Of a stretch of DNA of 64,000 bases, positions 1 to 63,409 are shown piece by piece. The notes under the pieces were generated by a model. It had not been told where the DNA came from and did not search any database. It saw nothing but the letters and a program-made list of their open reading frames with translations. Positions within the stretch are counted from its first letter, which is position 1. Each line of letters begins with the position of its first letter. Made by a program: the position numbers and the translations under genes. The stretch is taken from NCBI GenBank assembly GCA_041663445.1, contig JBAYMR010000005.1, forward strand, positions 996 through 64,995, read 5' to 3'. Source of the stretch: Candidatus Micrarchaeia archaeon (GTDB lineage Archaea > Micrarchaeota > Micrarchaeia > Anstonellales > Anstonellaceae).

Positions 1-1
1 C

Positions 2-1570
2 GCGGGCGCGACAACGCAATCCACTGTAACAGTAAAAGTGGGCACTGGAAACACCAACACCTCAAGCAACCTCCCGATAATTTCCAAGACGAGCGGCCCG
101 ACCTCGCTCTCCACGAGCCAGAGCGGCACATGGAGCATAAGCGCGTATGACCCCAACAGCAGGGCACTCACATACAGCGTAACCTGGGGCGATGGCAACA
201 ATGCGGTGCCGTCGGCATCGGATTCGGCAGCCTTGGCCCCAACGTTCCAGCACTCGTATTCGAGCGCAGGAATATACCCGATAACCTTTAGCGTGAAAAA
301 CAGCGAAGGCGTAACGGTATACAAGAGCACCGCGGTGACAGTCGGCAACCCAGGCAAGGCCATTCTCGGCAGGGTGTCCTACTGGTATGGCAAGGTGAAC
401 AGGCACAGCAACCTGAACGGCGAATGGTCTACGGACCCGGACGGGGTTTCTGGGGCAAACCTGGACATACTGACGTACTGCAAGAAATGGTTCTCCGGCA
501 CGACTGAAATCGTAGACGGCGGCACTGAAACCTCGTATGGATGGAAAGACAGGGGCAATGTCAACGACTACGTATCGTCCAAGCCGACTTACCTGTGCAT
601 TGCAGGCAAGGAAACGCAAAGCGACGGCAAGGTGAGCGTAACAGCGGACGTCACCCCGGCGGAAGTTGCCCAGTACAGCCAGGTGTACGTTACAGGCAAG
701 ATAACGTATGCGAACGCCGCGCAGGATGCCGACCAGAAGTTCAAGGTGGTCACGTCCCTCAGCAGCGCAAACGACGTGGCGTCTGACAGCAGCACAACGA
801 AAAAGACGTCCCAGGCGCAGGAGCGCGTTGATTACATAACGCTCAGCCCAGGAACGTCGAAGGAAGTGTCGGCGTACTTCACCGCGTACACGCTTGGCGC
901 AAACTACGCCGAGATAGACGTGTACCAGTACACATCGGACTGCATAACTGCAGTGGCATCGGCAAATCCGCAGTGCATAGATGGCTACAAGCTTGTGGCG
1001 TCTGCGGCGGACAAGGTGGTCGTGAAGGCGGCCGGAACCCCGCCCCAGAATGACACGGTGAAAATCGTGCTTGCGAAGGGATGGAACATGATATCCTCGC
1101 CCTCGACATCTGCAGTGAGCATCAAGGACATTGCAAGCAAATGCGACATATCCGCGAACGCATGGAGCTACGACACGTCAAAGAACCAGTATGTGGCGGC
1201 AAGCTACATCGGCGGAACCGCAGGCTTCTGGCTGCGCGCGAACGAGAAGTGCGAGTATGAGGTCGCTTCACCGTACGCAGACAGCTTCAGCGCAAACCTC
1301 AGGGCGGGCTGGAACATGATTGGAGGGATAGGCACCTCGGTGCTGCTCTCCGATTACATTGGCGACTGCAAGGTAACCTCGGGCCCGTGGAACTACTCGC
1401 CCTCGGCAAGCCAGTATGTCTACAGCTCGAAGCTCGAGCCAGGCAAGGGCTACTGGGTGAAGGTGAACGCGGACTGCACGCTTGGAGGGGACAGCATGCC
1501 TCCAAGCCCGCCGTCCAGCCAGCCATCTGCAACGAGCGCGGCGAAGGTTGCAACAACACAGGCAAATTAA
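2..1570 (+). CDS. secreted cell-surface protein with PKD-like repeat; 5' end runs off the window
   Basis: Frame is open from nt 2; the track start at 38 is an internal GTG. PKD-type motif YSVTWGDGN. Two GWNMI-containing repeats near the C-terminus. Ser/Pro-rich tail. Confidence 0.7.
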   Translation, partial: AGATTQSTVTVKVGTGNTNTSSNLPIISKTSGPTSLSTSQSGTWSISAYDPNSRALTYSVTWGDGNNAVPSASDSAALAPTFQHSYSSAGIYPITFSVKNSEGVTVYKSTAVTVGNPGKAILGRVSYWYGKVNRHSNLNGEWSTDPDGVSGANLDILTYCKKWFSGTTEIVDGGTETSYGWKDRGNVNDYVSSKPTYLCIAGKETQSDGKVSVTADVTPAEVAQYSQVYVTGKITYANAAQDADQKFKVVTSLSSANDVASDSSTTKKTSQAQERVDYITLSPGTSKEVSAYFTAYTLGANYAEIDVYQYTSDCITAVASANPQCIDGYKLVASAADKVVVKAAGTPPQNDTVKIVLAKGWNMISSPSTSAVSIKDIASKCDISANAWSYDTSKNQYVAASYIGGTAGFWLRANEKCEYEVASPYADSFSANLRAGWNMIGGIGTSVLLSDYIGDCKVTSGPWNYSPSASQYVYSSKLEPGKGYWVKVNADCTLGGDSMPPSPPSSQPSATSAAKVATTQAN

Positions 1571-1579
1571 GGTTGATGA

Positions 1580-1867
1580 TTGATGAAAACAACTTTGCTG
1601 ATGGTTGCGATTGCCGTTTCCCTTTTGTTTTTTTTCGGCTGCACGGGAAGCGGCAAGCCGTCGATAATGCCGGATAACGGCACGGTTGGCGCTGCAGGGC
1701 AGCAGGCATTGGCGCCGTCTGACATCCCGCCGCCGCCCTCTGACTCGGGCATGCCGCCAGCAGCCCCGTCCCAGCCAGCTGTAGCGGATAACGCCTCTTC
1801 GGCGCCGCTCGAAGGTGATGCCCCGCCGCCTGCGCCAGGCGGCGAGCTTCCAAGCCTTCCCGGCTAG
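1580..1867 (+). CDS. small Pro-rich putative lipoprotein
   Basis: N-terminal hydrophobic signal ending in lipobox-like FFGC, followed by a Pro/Ala/Ser-rich sequence. Lies 10 nt after the preceding surface-protein gene. Confidence 0.5.
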   Translation: MMKTTLLMVAIAVSLLFFFGCTGSGKPSIMPDNGTVGAAGQQALAPSDIPPPPSDSGMPPAAPSQPAVADNASSAPLEGDAPPPAPGGELPSLPG

Positions 1868-2008
1868 AAATAAGTGATTACATGGAAGATGATGAAGAAA
1901 ATAGCGTGAGCGCTGCCGTAGCCAAGGAGCGCCCAAAGGCGACATTGGCAGAGCTTCTGCTGGCCTCGCTTTTGTGATGCGCGCTTGAAGGGAGAGAGCT
2001 AGAGATGC

Positions 2009-2016
2009 TTTTTTAA
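2009..2016 (+). promoter_or_regulatory. TATA-like box (TTTTTTAA) upstream of the tRNA-Glu locus
   Basis: A/T box about 26-33 nt upstream of nt 2042. That is the 5' end of the upstream acceptor-mimic minihelix, not the tRNA 5' end at 2084. Confidence 0.35.
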
Positions 2017-2041
2017 CCCCTTCGCGGGCAAATGAAACCAG

Positions 2042-2078
2042 GCTCCCATCCGCTTGCCTGCTGGCAAGTCTGGGGGCA
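2042..2078 (+). repeat. tRNA-Glu acceptor-stem mimic minihelix (5' leader copy)
   Basis: GCTCCCA (2042-2048, identical to the tRNA 5' acceptor strand) pairs with TGGGGGC (2071-2077, one U.G pair). It encloses hairpin CTTGCC-TGCT-GGCAAG. Confidence 0.6.
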
Positions 2079-2083
2079 CAAGC

Positions 2084-2288
2084 GCTCCCATAGTCTAGCC
2101 CGGTAAGGACGCGGGCCTTTCATTGAACTCTTTTCGGCGTATCGAAAAGCTTTCACGGAAAGAAGAAAGCCTGTAACACGGGTTCAAAAGCGAATCTGGC
2201 AATGCCGCCAACCCCTCGCAGGGTTGACGAACCTGTCGTGCTGATGCACGGCAATTTGCCCGCTTCGCGGGCAATCCCGTTGGGAGCG
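2084..2288 (+). tRNA. tRNA-Glu(UUC) with two introns (37/38 and T-loop 59/60)
   Basis: Manual cloverleaf from three exons. Exon 1 is 2084-2122: GCTCCCA TA GTCT AGCCCGGTAA GGAC G CGGGC CTTTCA. Exon 2 is 2168-2188: A GCCTG TAAC ACGGG TTCAAA. Exon 3 is 2275-2288: T CCCGT TGGGAGC G. The mature RNA is 74 nt. Confidence 0.75.
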
Positions 2289-2298
2289 TTTTTTTTTT
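2289..2298 (+). terminator. oligo-T tract immediately after tRNA-Glu
   Basis: T10 run directly after the discriminator base. Archaeal termination typically occurs at oligo-T. Confidence 0.5.
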
Positions 2299-2312
2299 CT
2301 TTTGCCAATGGA

Positions 2313-2354
2313 GCTCACAGCAAGTTGTGCAGGAGCACAACTGCGTTGGGAGCA
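2313..2354 (+). repeat. tRNA-Glu acceptor-stem mimic minihelix (downstream copy)
   Basis: GCTCACA (2313-2319) pairs with TGGGAGC (2347-2353) with one mismatch. It encloses the 7-bp hairpin GTTGTGC-AGGA-GCACAAC and is followed by a T-rich tract. It aligns with the last ~45 nt of intron 2 plus exon 3, with compensatory stem changes. Confidence 0.6.
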
Positions 2355-2550
2355 TTTTTCTTTTTGCTTTTAACTTACTTTCATATGAAACACACCATTA
2401 ATCGCAACAAAATGACGTTTTGCGCAGCTTTTTGGGAGCCTTTGCGCAGATTAAAAAGCCTATGGGTCATATGGTGGTTGCGGCCTTGAATCGTATGAAG
2501 CTTAATCAGAATGAGATGAATTCGACCGAAGGCGCCCCGCTGCAAGCAGC

Positions 2551-2606
2551 CCACTTTTTCGCAGCAGCGAAAAAGGGGTCCCTTTTTGCCACGGGCAAAA
2601 AGTGGA
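2551..2606. repeat. two abutting related hairpins
   Basis: Hairpin 1 (2551-2578): CCACTTTTTCGC-AGCA-GCGAAAAAGGGG. Hairpin 2 (2579-2606): TCCCTTTTTGCC-ACG-GGCAAAAAGTGGA. Arm 1 also complements arm 4, and arm 2 complements arm 3. Confidence 0.55.
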
Positions 2607-2641
2607 CGGGGTATCATCACCATTCGGTCGAAATGTTGCCG

Positions 2642-2678
2642 GTTGGGCCCCGCCGCAAGCGGCGGGGTATCGCCCAAC
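2642..2678. repeat. nested double hairpin
   Basis: Outer stem is GTTGGGC/GCCCAAC (7 bp). Inner stem is CCCGCCG-CAAG-CGGCGGG (7 bp). A 5-nt 3' spacer GTATC separates them. Confidence 0.5.
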
Positions 2679-2718
2679 TGGCAATGAAGCTCAAGCATGA
2701 CGAGGCGCAGGTGGAAAA

Positions 2719-3300
2719 ATGTTCAACACGGCTTTCATAATGCAGATGTTCGCGCTGCTAAATCCGCTATCGTCGTTCCCGGTGCTTATGGCGGCATACA
2801 AGAAGAAGCTGGACGTGCGCGGGATTGCGGTGAAGGCGTCGGTCGTCGCCTACCTTGTCGCCATGTTCTGCCTGTTTTTCGGCCCGCAGTTCTTCAACCT
2901 TTACGGCGTGAGCGTGGACGCGTTCAGGCTGGCCGGAGGCGTGGTGCTGTTCCTGCTGGGGCTTGACACCGTGCGCCCCAAGCCGGTGCGCGAGGACGTG
3001 GGGGAGATGGACTCCCTCATCGCCATCATAGCCACCCCCCTCCTGACCGGCCCGGCGGTGATTTCATACCTCACCATAAAGGCTATGGAGGACGGTGCGG
3101 CGTCGCTCGTGCCGGACGTCACGGCGGCGTTTTTGGTGGTGGGCGTGATTTTCTTCGTGTTCTCGGTGCTGCTTCCGCGCATCAATGAGAAAGCGGTGGA
3201 AATCCTGTCGAAGATAATGGGGCTGTTCCTCATGGCGATTGCTGTCGAGATGATAGCGAATGGCATGAGCGTGCTGCTGTTTGCAAAGGCAGTGGCTTGA
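2719..3300 (+). CDS. MarC family (UPF0056) integral membrane protein
   Basis: N-terminal motif FALLNPLSSFPVLM plus a multi-pass hydrophobic profile typical of MarC/NAAT proteins. A paralog lies at 19961-20536. Confidence 0.8.
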   Translation: MFNTAFIMQMFALLNPLSSFPVLMAAYKKKLDVRGIAVKASVVAYLVAMFCLFFGPQFFNLYGVSVDAFRLAGGVVLFLLGLDTVRPKPVREDVGEMDSLIAIIATPLLTGPAVISYLTIKAMEDGAASLVPDVTAAFLVVGVIFFVFSVLLPRINEKAVEILSKIMGLFLMAIAVEMIANGMSVLLFAKAVA

Positions 3301-3567
3301 AAGCCGTTTCCGAGCGCAAGCCAATAACCGCCGGCATGCGGCAAGTTCAGGATGGGCTTGCCCGTAAATGGAGCCACAGCCCCCGGCGGGGCAAATTCCG
3401 CCCGCTTTTTGCGCAGCAGAACTTTGGCAGGCGTGGGGCGGCGCGCCGCCCCACCGGAACCCCACCCTGCGAATGTTTTTATATCGGCAAAAAGCCAAAC
3501 TCCAACCATGGACACGCGCGGGCAAAAGCAGTTTAAACCCATTGGTACACCAAGTGTAATAGGTGTA

Positions 3568-3816
3568 ATGATGGAATATGCCACAAAGAAAATACCCAAG
3601 GGGCTGGTGAATAGGATTGCGCGCCTCAAGGCGCGCTTGACCCTGAGCAATGACTGCAAGGTCACCGAAGGAGAAGTGATAGCACTGGCCATCTGCAGGC
3701 TCGAGGAAGACCTCAGCAGGCAATCCCGAACCCCATTCAGGGAGCTTGTCGGGATGGTTAAGGGAAAAGCGAAAAGCAACGCAGAAGAAATAGACCGCGT
3801 GGTATACGGAATATGA
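3568..3816 (+). CDS. vapB: VapB-like antitoxin
   Basis: Small ORF in frame with track ORF 3352-3816. The start is taken at MMEYATKK. Its stop overlaps the downstream PIN-domain gene start by 4 nt. Confidence 0.6.
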   Translation: MMEYATKKIPKGLVNRIARLKARLTLSNDCKVTEGEVIALAICRLEEDLSRQSRTPFRELVGMVKGKAKSNAEEIDRVVYGI

Positions 3817-4208
3817 GGCGGATTATGCTTTTTGCCGATACTTCATTCTTGGTCGCTTCCCTGCGCGTGAATGATGAAAACCATTTGAGAGCAAAAGCAA
3901 TCGCAGAGGGCATGAATGAGAAAATGATGATAAGCGACCATGTCCTCTCAGAGCTTCTGACTTTATTGGCATACAAGGAAGGGAATAAGACGGCGTACCA
4001 GGCTGGAAAGCGCCTGATTGGCAGCGATGTGCTGATTGTGTATGCCATCTCGGAAGACATCCCCCTGGCACTTGAACTGATGAAAACAACCCCAAAATTG
4101 AGCATGTGCGATGCCCTGTCTGCGACCATAATGAAAAAACTCAGGATTAAGAAAATTCTCTCGTTCGACTCTGATTTTGACGCGCTGGGCTTTGAGAGGA
4201 TTTGCTAA
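3813..4208 (+). CDS. vapC: PIN-domain ribonuclease toxin VapC
   Basis: Conserved acidic positions in FADTSFL, SELLTLL, CDALSA and SFDSDF. Size is 131 aa. Confidence 0.8.
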   Translation: MRRIMLFADTSFLVASLRVNDENHLRAKAIAEGMNEKMMISDHVLSELLTLLAYKEGNKTAYQAGKRLIGSDVLIVYAISEDIPLALELMKTTPKLSMCDALSATIMKKLRIKKILSFDSDFDALGFERIC

Positions 4209-44272: not shown

Positions 44273-44380
44273 AGCCCCATCGTCCAGTGGTCAAGGATAC
44301 GAGGCTCTGACGAACCGGATCTTGCCCGCCTTTCGGGGCGGAGATACCTCGGGACATCGGTTCGAATCCGATTGGGGCTA
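44273..44380 (+). tRNA. tRNA-Gln(CUG) with a 35-nt canonical intron
   Basis: AGCCCCA TC GTCC AGTGGTCAA GGAT A CGAGG CTCTGA [intron] A CCTCG GGAC ATCGG TTCGAAT CCGAT TGGGGCT A. Has the A1:U72 pair typical of archaeal tRNA-Gln. Bulge-helix-bulge geometry: CTCT pairs with GGAG, flanked by 3-nt bulges. Confidence 0.85.
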
Positions 44381-44403: not shown

Positions 44404-44449
44404 GCCCCAATTCTCGCCACCCTTCGGGTGACGATCCGATTGGGGCTAC
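44404..44449 (+). repeat. tRNA-Gln 3'-end copy folded as a minihelix (unit 1)
   Basis: GCCCCAAT (44404-44411) pairs with ATTGGGGC (44439-44446). It encloses hairpin GCCACCC-TTC-GGGTGAC. ATCCGATTGGGGCTAC is identical to the tRNA from T-loop position 59 to 2 nt past the discriminator base. Confidence 0.6.
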
Positions 44450-44477: not shown

Positions 44478-44515
44478 GCCCCAATTCCCGCGGGGCTCGG
44501 CTGGATTGGGGCTAT
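44478..44515 (+). repeat. tRNA-Gln 3'-end copy folded as a minihelix (unit 2)
   Basis: GCCCCAAT (44478-44485) pairs with ATTGGGGC (44505-44512) and is followed by a T-rich tract. A collapsed third unit, GCCCAAATCGGGGC, lies at 44534-44547. Confidence 0.55.
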
Positions 44516-54512: not shown

Positions 54513-54578
54513 GCTCGCATCCCGTTGCAGTTGCAGCCGTCTAGGGAGGCTGCGCTACAGTTCCAGTTCAAAAGGTAT

Positions 54579-54939
54579 AAAAAACAACCTCTTGTGTTGT
54601 TTTTTAGATTTGGAAGTGGAGGCGCACTTCCAAACAGAGGACAAATTTCCAGAGAAATTTGTCCGCATATGGAAATCCGATAGGATTTACATATACAATG
54701 AAAAACTTCCAGAGAAGTTTTTCAGCAGTGGAATTATAGAAATTCCACTACAATAAAAACCAGAGCGTAGCGATGGTTTTTAGAAGCCGGGCGAAGTTCA
54801 GCCGTGATGCCCCCACGCATGAGGCGCGGTTTTTTAGCATTGGAACGGGTGGATTCCATTCCAACCGGAAAAATGCGCGCCAACGCGCATTTTATAAACA
54901 ATTGGGGTCATTAAAAGCCAGCTCTATTCTGAGCTTGGC
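54579..54939. repeat. array of about ten consecutive, sequence-diverse, near-perfect hairpins in an AT-rich intergenic region
   Basis: Stems are 9-12 bp and loops 4-7 nt, except one 11-nt loop. Hairpin spans: 54579-605, 54609-634, 54639-664, 54667-694, 54699-724, 54727-749, 54754-782, 54813-829, 54840-864, 54870-893, 54917-939. Confidence 0.8.
54891..54898 (+). promoter_or_regulatory. TATA box (TTTATAAA) upstream of aIF5A
   Basis: Lies about 60 nt upstream of the TTG start at 54957. The GGTGAT Shine-Dalgarno-like site is at 54948-54953. Confidence 0.4.
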
Positions 54940-54956
54940 ATTGGAAAGGTGATTTC

Positions 54957-62177: not shown

Positions 62178-63269
62178 ATGGAAACCAACATACTTGGCGC
62201 CGGCCCCGCAGGGCTTTGCGCTGCGATAAACCTTGCGCGCGCTGGGAAAAGCGTCAAAGTGCATGAAAAGCGCGAAGGGGCGGGGATGCGCTTTTGCCCC
62301 AACCTGCAGGGGTTGCGCTATCTTTACATGCCGCCAGGGGAATTCCTGCGGCAGGTGGGCGTGGAAGCTGGCGTGGAATTCCGCTACTTTTCGCGCGCGG
62401 TCATTTGCACAAGAGGCAGGAAAATGGAGCTGGACTGCTCGGGCGGAAGCCAGATGCCCTTTGTGCTGCGTGGCAGCGGCGGGAAGCTGGGGGATGGAAC
62501 GCTTGATGCCGCGCTCTTTTCGGAAGCAAGAAGGCTCGGCGTGGAATTCGAGTTCAATTCGCGCGCAACCGAGCGCGACGCGCAGATAGTGGCGACGGGC
62601 AGCAGGGGCGAGCCGGACCAGGCCGCGCTTGGAAGCGTGTTTGAGAACAGCGATTTCCCGCGCGACTGCCAGCTTGTCATGTTTGACGACAGGTATTCGC
62701 CGCGAGGCTGGTACTCTTACATATTGCCCTTGGGCAAGGACGAAATCGAGTTTGTCACCTGCGTGTCAAAGCCGCACATCCCGTTGCTTTCGCAACTGCA
62801 TGCAAAGGCGATGGAAGGGAGGAAGGAAATTTCCGATGCTGTTGGCGGCAGGAAAAAAATCGCTTCCTTCGGAGGCTCGGCGTCCTCGCGCATCCCGAAA
62901 AGCGCGTTTGTTGGCGGCAAATATTTTGTCGGCGAGGCAGCCGGCTTCCAGGACCCGTACATGGGCTTCGGGATTGCCTACGCGCTGCGGAGCGGGCATC
63001 TTGCGGCGCGCGCAATGATTGAGGGAGAGGATTATGATGCGCTTTGGAAGCGCGAGTTCGGCTATTACCTGAGGAAGGACGCCGCCTACAGGTTTACGAT
63101 GTGGCTGGCGGGCGATTCGGCTGCATCGCTCGTGATGTCAAAGTACAAGGACCATCAGCGCGCGAACCTGTCCGCCGCGCTCCCTGAAAAAAATCCCGCT
63201 TACCGCGCGCTCGTCGAGGGAGTGTCGCTGCTCGCGCGGGCAAAAAAAAGAGCGAGCGGAAGCTGGTAG
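62178..63269 (+). CDS. FAD-dependent oxidoreductase (geranylgeranyl reductase-like)
   Basis: ILGAGPAGLCAA dinucleotide-binding motif and GEAAGFQDPYMGFGI. Confidence 0.75.
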   Translation: METNILGAGPAGLCAAINLARAGKSVKVHEKREGAGMRFCPNLQGLRYLYMPPGEFLRQVGVEAGVEFRYFSRAVICTRGRKMELDCSGGSQMPFVLRGSGGKLGDGTLDAALFSEARRLGVEFEFNSRATERDAQIVATGSRGEPDQAALGSVFENSDFPRDCQLVMFDDRYSPRGWYSYILPLGKDEIEFVTCVSKPHIPLLSQLHAKAMEGRKEISDAVGGRKKIASFGGSASSRIPKSAFVGGKYFVGEAAGFQDPYMGFGIAYALRSGHLAARAMIEGEDYDALWKREFGYYLRKDAAYRFTMWLAGDSAASLVMSKYKDHQRANLSAALPEKNPAYRALVEGVSLLARAKKRASGSW

Positions 63270-63409
63270 GTTCGCAGCAAGCCGCCCTATTTTTCGGCGC
63301 ACCGAAAAATGGACATCTTGTGCGTTGCGACGCACAAGACCGTCCGCTGGGACGGGATTCGCCCGCCCTGAACACTACACACTGGCCATTTTCGCGTGGC
63401 AGATTCTCC

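Follow-up and report, generated by a model that had tools for sequence, protein, structure and literature searches.

The window analysed here is a 64-kb sequence from a metagenome-assembled genome (MAG) of a Candidatus Micrarchaeia archaeon (DPANN), and it contains three multi-intron tRNA genes, for tRNA-Glu(UUC), tRNA-Gln(CUG) and tRNA-Ile(UAU). Each of them is trailed by one or two short units, which consist of a G+C-rich hairpin, an exact copy of the last 10–22 nt of the tRNA and a T-tract, and the tRNA-Glu gene is in addition preceded by a hairpin-bearing unit. On the 3' side the duplicated segment begins in the T-loop or T-stem and extends through the discriminator and the T-tract, and the 5' duplicate covers tRNA positions 1–8. 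We read these units, with roughly even confidence, as pseudo-terminal exons that were made by recombination and that carry intron-like G+C-rich hairpins, and not as a dedicated class of RNA gene.

It should be mentioned that the three genes are easily overlooked. A default ARAGORN run on the window found no tRNA, and the Rfam scan gave a single tRNA match (RF00005, 50.2 bits), which is the tRNA-Gln at 44273–44380. After in-silico splicing, ARAGORN accepts all three genes, the units not being included. Since default ARAGORN thus misses three genes out of three and Rfam finds only one, standard finders miss such genes and the tRNA complements of DPANN archaea are probably under-called. As to the units, the Rfam covariance models match none of them, even at E<=10.

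A scan with the beta subunit of phenylalanyl-tRNA synthetase (PheRS) identified Candidatus Micrarchaeia/Micrarchaeota MAGs as the nearest genomes, their gene being 84–85% identical to that of the window, and over its first 8.1 kb the window is matched by an ENA contig at 100% identity. The orthologous tRNA-Glu loci were recovered via the neighbouring MarC gene and the PheRS scan, and the tRNA-Ile loci via the gene for the RNase P subunit Rpp21 (17711–17412, minus strand). Related loci are referred to below by numbers beginning with L. In the next 9 kb to the right of the window (L069) there is no recognisable fourth tRNA locus. A scan for bacterial-type promoters and terminators was uninformative, the host being an archaeon.

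The sequence features are real and far above the chance level. For a 10-mer to recur within 200 nt, the chance expectation is ca 2e-4 per locus. The proposed folds are confirmed for all units (z-scores of −3.9 to −5.3), their stability being matched by 0 of 200 shuffles. Chance matches in G+C-rich intergenic DNA were considered as an explanation, and two individual resemblances are not significant by themselves, namely the 5' strand GCTCACA of the unit downstream of tRNA-Glu (p=0.22) and the alignment of that unit with intron 2 of the same gene (p=0.25). However, the exact 10–22-nt copies lie 3' of all three tRNAs, the fold z-scores reach −4 to −5, and the pattern recurs in many relatives. This recurrence across loci and genomes already refutes chance, to which we attach practically no probability.

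The tRNA-Glu locus

The features of this locus are as follows.

2009–2016, plus strand: TATA-like box TTTTTTAA of the tRNA-Glu gene, from sequence reading, 33 nt 5' of the first GCTCCCA copy
2042–2083, plus strand: 5' leader unit, a 42-nt insertion (−24.5 kcal/mol, z −3.9)
2084–2288, plus strand: tRNA-Glu(UUC) gene, exons 2084–2122, 2168–2188 and 2275–2288 (ARAGORN on the spliced sequence)
2123–2167, plus strand: canonical intron
2189–2274, plus strand: T-loop (59/60) intron, called intron 2, a true intron inside the mature tRNA
2278–2298, plus strand: direct repeat copy 1, the tRNA-Glu 3' end CGTTGGGAGCG followed by T10
2313–2354, plus strand: downstream unit (−23.3 kcal/mol, z −4.2)
2432–2440, plus strand: third, partial copy of the tRNA-Glu 3' end, TTGGGAGCC

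The leader unit is composed of GCTCCCA(T), a bulge TCC, the hairpin GCTTGCC-TGCT-GGCAAGT (2052–2069, 7 bp with a tetraloop), a single C, the pseudo-3' strand TGGGGGC (2071–2077) and the spacer ACAAGC. The insertion is bounded by the 8-nt direct repeat GCTCCCAT, at 2042–2049 and 2084–2091, that is, 42 nt apart. The earlier note on this DNA had described the GCTCCCA copies at 2042 and 2084 with the hairpin and TGGGGGC between them, and they are indeed present there. It had also proposed that the spacing of the TATA-like box aims transcription at the first copy, which is borne out by comparison. The distance from the box to the mature 5' end is the same at the other two tRNAs of the window and at the insertion-free L003 orthologue, and L003, L050 and L056 have an identical TATA-like box and spacing at tRNA-Glu. 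In the insertion-free orthologue the tRNA 5' end occupies the position of the first GCTCCCA, and the upstream unit is thus a 42-nt leader. By comparison with these loci, what had been called an upstream minihelix is a lineage-specific 42-nt insertion, with the promoter now aimed at the first copy.

The leader unit is present in four tRNA-Glu lineages (the window, L052, L053/54 and L056) and absent in two (L003 and L050/51). In the latter two the tRNA-Glu begins where the window has its first GCTCCCA, contains the canonical intron only, lacks the leader unit, the T-loop intron and the downstream unit, and has MarC within ca 45 nt. L052, L056 and L053/54 carry the leader unit and the T-loop intron and no downstream unit; the L053/54 locus is inverted. 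The leader of these relatives consists of GCTCCCA, TCC/TCT, a hairpin, TGGAAGC, a 6–8-nt spacer and GCTCCCATAG, and in L052 the inner hairpin is wholly different, AGGGG-ATTCG-CCCCT. No bulge–helix–bulge (BHB) motif, with its two 3-nt bulges 4 bp apart, could be drawn by hand in the leader unit, and for this reason we infer that it is removed by RNase P. We also considered both the leader and the downstream units as BHB introns, an option that was rejected, as no staggered 3-nt bulges could be drawn.

The downstream unit is built in the order GCTCACA, GCAA, the hairpin GTTGTGC-AGGA-GCACAAC, TGCG and TTGGGAGC-A. Here CGTTGGGAGC and its T-tract are duplicated, at 2278–2298 and 2344–2364 (21 nt, 66 nt apart, 90% identity), and the partial copy at 2432–2440 is bounded by the direct repeat TTTGCGCAG (2419–2430 and 2441–2452). 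The unit at 2313–2354 with its hairpin and T-tract, as well as the further TTGGGAGC at 2432–2439, had both been noticed before and were confirmed. The same does not hold for the proposed kinship of the downstream hairpin with intron 2. The local alignment has the p of 0.25 given above and is unsupported, and the case for compensatory substitutions drawn from that pair is therefore statistically unproven; real covariation is found among orthologous units instead (see below). When the whole locus is folded to its minimum free energy, the units come out as independent domains. The motif TTGTGC-N4-GCACAA occurs exactly twice in the 64 kb, in the Glu downstream unit and in the Ile unit.

The downstream unit and the 2432 copy fall within ca 180 nt of extra DNA that is absent from the other tRNA-Glu loci, the unit being missing at five other distinct ones (L003, L050/51, L052, L053/54 and L056). 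Absence from relatives had been named as an observation that would speak against the whole pattern. It holds for the Glu downstream unit at these five loci, while the leader, Ile and Gln units do recur. The Glu downstream unit is probably seldom transcribed, as it lies behind T10 and lacks its own TATA box. For the units in general, a promoter of their own was considered and rejected, because the T-rich linkers lie 22–23 nt before the unit, compared to 32–33 nt at real tRNA promoters.

In L005 the sole remnant of tRNA-Glu is a 13-nt 3' fragment, CCCGTTGGGAGCG, followed by T9, and it directly adjoins an AT-rich island (1–4144). The island, of a mobile or defence kind, encodes a TraG/VirB4-like ATPase, an AbiEii toxin and an AbiEi antitoxin, and replaces the tRNA-Glu–MarC–PIN segment. 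The contig stops inside the island, so that the second border is off the contig.

Separately, a hairpin-rich insertion of ca 200 nt (2518–2709) lies just 5' of MarC in the window and is absent in L003, L050 and L052. Its hairpins include CTTTTTCG-CAGCAG-CGAAAAAG, CTTTTTGC-CACGG-GCAAAAAG and CCCCGCCG-CAAG-CGGCGGGG. The call of an open reading frame (ORF) of 84/106 amino acids that overlaps it is probably spurious.

Units at the tRNA-Ile and tRNA-Gln loci

The features of the other two loci are as follows.

18110–17885, minus strand: tRNA-Ile(UAU) gene with three introns (ARAGORN on the spliced sequence)
17935–17899, minus strand: Ile T-loop intron, 37 nt, at position 59/60, with a perfect BHB (TTCG AA/T...CGAA AA/T)
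17872–17796, minus strand: Ile downstream unit, two hairpins between an inverted strand and a 22-nt copy of the 3' end
17872–17864, minus strand: inverted strand AGTGTGCCC
17859–17840, minus strand: hairpin hp1, TTTTGTGC-TGTT-GCACAAAA
17836–17820, minus strand: hairpin hp2
17817–17796, minus strand: 22-nt copy TCGTCGGGCCCACTTTCTCCTT of 17896–17875 (3' end and trailer), 79 nt downstream
44273–44380, plus strand: tRNA-Gln(CUG) gene, canonical intron 44311–44345 (Rfam 50.2 bits, and ARAGORN after splicing)
44404–44448, plus strand: Gln unit 1 (cassette type A), GCCCCAAT, TCT, hairpin, ATCCGATTGGGGCTA (−26 kcal/mol, z −5.3)
44478–44514, plus strand: Gln unit 2 (cassette type E), GCCCCAATTCC, loop, GGATTGGGGCTA, then T7

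The pattern at tRNA-Glu had been said to occur at the other two loci as well. This is correct downstream (Gln 44404–44448 and 44478–44514; Ile 17817–17796) but not upstream, where tRNA-Gln and tRNA-Ile have no unit.

For tRNA-Ile, the choice of four exons follows from exon enumeration and from conservation in L005, and it should be regarded as probable. A 9-nt micro-exon, CTTATATGA (18043–18035, minus strand), would carry the anticodon, and between the window and L005 conservation is almost as high in the introns as in the exons. L005 and L065 lack the 37-nt T-loop insertion, and among the orthologous loci every combination of T-loop intron and downstream unit is seen.

L065: no T-loop intron, no downstream unit
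L064: T-loop intron of family 1, no downstream unit
Window, L059/60 and L062: T-loop intron of family 1, downstream unit present
L005: no T-loop intron, downstream unit present
L066/67: T-loop intron of family 2, no downstream unit

The arms of hp1 in four Ile units are TTTTGTGC with GCACAAAA, TGTTGTGC with GCACAACA, TTTTGCGC with GCGCAAAA, and TTTCGCCC with GGGCGAAA, and the counterpart in the Glu unit is AGTTGTGC with GCACAACT.

At tRNA-Gln the units form arrays. A metagenome scan with the 3' 20-mer of this tRNA returned 38 loci, of which 23 are distinct and of Micrarchaeia type. They have a common gene neighbourhood, many with the same downstream gene; one or two units are present at 14 of the 23, and the remaining 9 have none. 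What stays constant is (ATCC)GATTGGGGCTA, a T-rich linker (CTTTATCTTTTCATTAGCTGCC or CTCTTTTCTTTACATTAGGTTTC) and GCCCCAAT, while what varies is the hairpin cassette, of which there are at least five unrelated types (A–E), in differing order and combination. The two window units follow the same layout, GCCCCAAT, hairpin, (ATCC)GATTGGGGCTA and T-tract. The final 17 nt of unit 1 are identical to the tRNA end plus CT, and this type is also found in L012, L023 and L025. L012 and L032, which are close relatives, have the distal unit and flank in common and differ in the proximal unit, and in L034 and L033 cassette C is nested within B. The copies are only 45–165 nt apart at the Gln loci, which show no distant copies and neither integrase nor cargo between copies. 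No cassette copies were found elsewhere in the 64-kb window or in ca 400 kb of related loci.

In the Gln units the 5' strand, which in several of them extends to GCCCCAATCG(G), corresponds to the 3' copy in reverse complement, T-stem bases included, and does not copy tRNA positions 1–8. The closing helix spans tRNA positions 64–71, without the 1:72 pair. The Ile inverted strand (AGTGTGCCC in the window, ATGTGCCCGACG in L062) pairs with GGGCCCACT or CGTCGGGCCCAT, across the discriminator and 2–3 trailer bases (p<0.0005 and p=0.0025). The 5' strand is missing in the L005 Ile unit, in L022 and in unit 2 of L023. Since the helix register differs from tRNA to tRNA, these are inverted copies of the local 3' end and not strict acceptor-stem mimics, and since each inverted strand matches its own tRNA's 3' end, it was templated locally and not carried in by an element. 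The term acceptor-stem mimic, used in the earlier note, is only loosely right; it fails for Gln, which lacks 1:72, for Ile, where the pairing crosses the discriminator, and for L005, which has no 5' strand.

These data also bear on the possibility that the units are decayed tandem duplicates of whole tRNAs, that is, mini-pseudogenes in which an internal deletion spared only the two acceptor strands and a single internal hairpin. The layout of 5' strand, hairpin and 3' strand would fit, and the type C Gln units (GCCCCA-A-TTCGAATCCGAT...) read as positions 2–7 followed directly by the T-loop and the T-stem's 3' strand. The window leader, when tried as a collapsed intron hairpin plus 3' strand, shows a weak similarity (p=0.04), but this is not significant in the other three lineages, and that assignment was rejected. 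Moreover, the 5' strand does not repeat positions 1–8 but mirrors the 3' copy as its reverse complement, T-stem and trailer bases included, and an identical deletion junction would be required in five cassette types. We thus consider such an origin highly improbable.

The repeat/spacer appearance of the Gln arrays and the 15–17-nt duplications led us to consider casposon- and CRISPR-like processes. The duplications contain no terminal inverted repeats and there is no Cas1, and the 'spacers' are self-complementary and common to different genomes; both readings were rejected. An integrase core site, with inverted binding sites around a 6–8-bp overlap, was rejected too, the spacers of 12–25 nt being too long.

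The T-runs at the Gln loci give a weak hint on transcription. At unit-bearing loci the T-run just after the tRNA has a mean length of 4.1, compared to 5.1 after the last copy (p=0.03) and to 5.3 just after the tRNA at unit-less loci (p=0.02), the loci being phylogenetically non-independent. The shorter run suggests that the Gln units are co-transcribed with the tRNA. This is one of several observations that would agree with functional RNA modules, tRNA-like hairpins co-transcribed with the tRNA and acting as RNase P/tRNase Z punctuation or insulators, back-up terminators or decoys. The folds are very stable and form independent domains in the whole-locus fold, a T-tract follows every 3' copy, hp1 covaries, the 5' strand stays complementary across unrelated cassettes, and the leader unit is conserved in four lineages, in one of them with a swapped hairpin. 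On the other hand, units are missing from orthologous loci of close relatives and vary in number from 0 to 2, the Glu downstream unit sits behind T10 without its own TATA box, the helix has a register other than an acceptor stem's, the 5' strand has been lost in L005, L022 and L023 unit 2, no Rfam family matches, and the T-run test suffers from the non-independence just mentioned. Taken together, we regard functional modules as unlikely, although by no means far-fetched.

T-loop introns and the origin of the units

The most direct connection between units and introns is found at tRNA-Ile. The T-loop intron of L066 (...TGCGGAGAACGTTCCCGGATGCTTTGCATCCGAAC/ATCTCGTCGGGCCCA), which forms a perfect BHB, can be aligned to the 3' portion of the downstream unit in L005 (TGCGCACAACAATTCGCCAGATGCTTTGCATCTGTCG/ATCTCGTCGGGCCCA), with a score of 32 that is reached in 0 of 5000 shuffles. 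The alignment includes half of hp1, and both sequences end at ATCTCGTCGGGCCCA. L066 retains only the 3' arm of hp1, and the complete hairpin occurs in four scattered lineages. In a neighbour-joining tree the unit-bearing taxa are scattered and L066 is sister to the unit-bearing L062, which favours the direction from unit to intron. A deletion would then have run from the T-loop into the unit, with the distal copy becoming the 3' exon. The corresponding comparison between the window Ile T-loop intron and the L005 unit was also made, and homology is unsupported in that case (p=0.29).

T-loop introns are in addition related across tRNA genes. The long T-loop intron of tRNA-Glu in L053, where the BHB motif is perfect too, belongs to Ile family 1 (the window, L059, L062 and L064), a similarity that 0 of 3000 shuffles equalled. 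The window Glu T-loop intron is related to the L056 Glu intron (0/3000 shuffles) and to the Ile T-loop family (p=0.002). A family common to tRNA-Glu and tRNA-Ile means that T-loop introns move between tRNA genes in this clade. The family motif, seen between L053 2636–2855 and L059 1770–1850, is TGMCAGCCCAAG...CCCCTTAGTCCG...ACCGCCCAAACCCC...GGTTTG...GAAAA, and the last bases are fitted to the T-loop in question (TGAA pairs with TTCA, CGAA with TTCG).

This mobility raises the option that the hairpin cassettes themselves are small mobile elements, intron-like or of the miniature inverted-repeat transposable element (MITE) type, which would insert into tRNA-like sequence (loops, termini and pseudo-ends already present) and duplicate their target. 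Besides the shared intron family, the same 7-bp stem is found in the window Glu unit and in the L005 Ile unit, cassette C sits inside B in L034 and L033, and direct repeats of 8–22 nt flank the insertions. Intron transposition between tRNAs has been described in Thermoproteales (cited in PMC4390854). On the other hand, no further copies of any cassette were found in the window or in the ca 400 kb of related loci. There is no nearby transposase, consistent terminal inverted repeats or a consistent target-site duplication length are lacking, and the inverted strand matches the tRNA's own 3' end and is locally templated. Mobile cassettes are therefore, in our opinion, a rather improbable explanation.

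We return to recombination-made pseudo-terminal exons. The duplications, the hairpins, the polymorphism between relatives, the modular arrays, the unit–intron homology and the island border are all seen directly at the loci, and on the best reading of them the units are dispensable and serve as raw material for 59/60 introns. In the first step of the mechanism we propose, recombination at a tRNA terminus would leave a second copy of the terminal 10–22 nt some tens of bases away, either through att-type (attachment-site) site-specific recombination by integrative elements or through local duplication or unequal exchange. Archaeal integrases favour tRNA 3' ends, with the 5' half used by some of them (PMC8371274), and Sugahara et al. 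2012 proposed element integration for the gain of tRNA introns and for how fragments of tRNA became scattered (PMC3293823; PMC4390854). In a second step, the small and deletion-prone genome would keep only short hairpin-bearing remnants between the copies. Copies and linkers may then recombine with each other, so that arrays would gain, lose and swap cassettes. As for processing, the 5' unit would be a structured 42-nt leader cut by RNase P, and the 3' units would be trailer, mostly lying beyond or between weak T-tracts and cut by tRNase Z. The local inverted strand would lock the pseudo-3' end in its own hairpin, and the latter would thus not compete for the 5' acceptor strand of the tRNA. 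Finally, when the proximal 3' end is deleted, the remnant would become a 59/60 BHB intron and the distal copy the working 3' exon. Among the roles that had been suggested earlier, recombination scars are the one that the comparative data support, through the polymorphism, the arrays and the island border, whereas decoys for RNase P, tRNase Z or the CCA-enzyme are disfavoured by the poor mimicry.

It is important to point out that several observations weigh against this interpretation. No integrase or cargo lies between any pair of copies, and there are no distant copies. Three scans of IMG/VR for viral or plasmid contigs carrying these sequences, with the constant Gln linker and with the Glu and Gln 3' ends plus trailer as queries, gave no hits or chance hits only, the plasmids of the lineage being hardly sampled there. 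All Gln unit types have one and the same left junction, GCCCCAAT plus 2–3 nt, which random deletion of integrated elements cannot yield. Significance is reached by the inverted 5' strand of Gln and by that of two Ile units, and a pure scar would not readily account for it. In hp1, 5 of 9 pairs show compensatory double changes and 0 of 8 core pairs are broken, and the 7-bp stem GTTGTGC/GCACAAC is shared without change by the window's Glu unit and L005's Ile unit, which implies some constraint or some self-correcting process acting on the hairpins. Self-correction of palindromes by template switching could mimic compensatory change without selection. The leader architecture, lastly, is retained in four lineages despite the swapped inner hairpin in one of them. 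The fixed Gln junction, the local inverted strand, the covarying hairpin and the leader architecture thus keep a functional or a mobile-cassette interpretation alive.

A further functional variant can be named. The units could be maintained 3' and 5' spare exons, with structure-selected hairpins and co-transcribed with the tRNA, serving either as a tRNA-like trailer RNA in processing or termination or as a reservoir of distal 3' exons, to which the splicing machinery could switch if the proximal end were damaged or struck by an integrating element. We give this variant a low probability. If true, it would be an undescribed way of protecting and renewing the ends of tRNA genes, as well as a direct source of 59/60 introns.

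The origin of non-canonical archaeal tRNA introns is an old open question, for which the published models invoke mobile-element integration or intron transposition and offer few intermediates. The orthologous loci of this clade appear to capture the successive states, namely an intact tRNA, a tRNA with a hairpin-bearing pseudo-3' exon, and, in another lineage, the same sequence as a perfect 59/60 BHB intron. The intron-birth hypothesis thereby becomes testable with existing metagenomes and with splicing in vitro.

Hairpins are also abundant away from the tRNA genes. Over the window (1–64000) there are 23 perfect 8-bp hairpins, compared to 5.65 in shuffles (ca 4 times as many), and they are concentrated in intergenic DNA; hairpin-rich spacers are thus a general trait of the genome, not confined to tRNA loci. 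A ca 440-nt AT-rich intergenic stretch at 54513–54956, flanked by a Gins51-like gene on the minus strand and by the eIF5A/S24e genes, has at least six such hairpins in a run and the motif TTCCAGAGAA repeated 60 nt apart, with no Rfam match; it looks like a repeat region of the replication-origin type or a cluster of small hairpin RNAs. At 63289–63339, just past an ORF ending at 63269, two adjacent perfect 8-bp hairpins (ATTTTTCG...CGAAAAAT and TCTTGTGC...GCACAAGA) overlap a sub-threshold Rfam match to ncS025 (31 bits compared to a gathering score of 46), which is probably due to chance. To the right of the window end, by ca 0.4–0.7 kb (L069 6440–6680), a unit of ca 50 nt, from TTTCCTAGGAA to ACTTGCTCT, is present in two copies ca 100 nt apart. 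The intergenic region around them, 436 nt long, contains several hairpins but neither an Rfam match nor a recognisable tRNA.

Relation to known systems

The units behave like the att duplications that integrative plasmids, viruses and islands leave at tRNA genes, and also like precursors or relics of BHB introns; arrays of tRNA remnants in genomic islands are a related case. As in att duplications, an exact copy of a tRNA terminus lies beside the intact gene, downstream or upstream of it, the repeat starts in the T-loop/T-stem region and continues past the 3' end, and in L005 a 3' fragment of tRNA-Glu borders an island of conjugative type. Identical 10–22-nt terminal direct repeats are thus present, but there is no element DNA between them. 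The copies are 45–165 nt apart with neither integrase nor cargo, and the units have conserved modular hairpin spacers, a fixed junction and an inverted att-like copy, features that are not known from att scars. Compared to MITEs, the cassettes occur only at their own tRNA locus, and the inverted strand is specific to each tRNA.

With archaeal BHB introns the units share the G+C-rich, variable hairpins in or beside tRNA genes, a family common to two tRNAs and the unit–intron homology. The units differ in lying outside the mature tRNA and in having no BHB, so they are unspliceable as they stand; read by hand, the closing helix leads into an internal loop (3 x 1 to 3 x 5 nt), which is followed by the hairpin. 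For ARMAN-2, which is of this lineage, a splicing endonuclease of broad specificity has been reported (PMC3239211), and intron transposition is attributed to Fujishima et al. 2010 as cited in PMC4390854. In the route considered here the 3' exon is duplicated locally and a deletion follows, which makes it a variant of the intron-gain model in the literature.

The units also resemble tRNA-like processing signals in part. Examples are the t-elements in plant mitochondrial transcripts and a tRNA-like structure that precedes haloarchaeal 5S rRNA; a substrate of this kind would have a 7-bp acceptor-like helix with an unpaired discriminator, stacked on a T-arm-like helix. Like t-elements, the units place a hairpin with an acceptor-like closing helix beside a real RNA gene, and cleavage by RNase P or tRNase Z may be possible. 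They differ in having no T-arm mimic and a varying helix register, and in being dispensable in relatives; the Gln helix has no 1:72 pair, the Ile helix crosses the discriminator, and the inner loops of 3–4 nt are not T-loops.

Split and tri-split tRNA genes are known from Nanoarchaeum and Caldivirga. They too consist of short pieces of tRNA sequence flanked by complementary leader sequence. Here, however, the neighbouring tRNA is complete, and the pieces are redundant copies that pair with themselves instead of a partner half. PMC4390854 can also be named for split genes.

Full-text literature searches, which covered part of the possible range, found no description of the unit layout. What is seen here is a variation on two known kinds of process, the duplication of tRNA termini by recombination and archaeal intron gain, and the main value of these loci lies in the intermediates of 59/60 intron birth that they provide.

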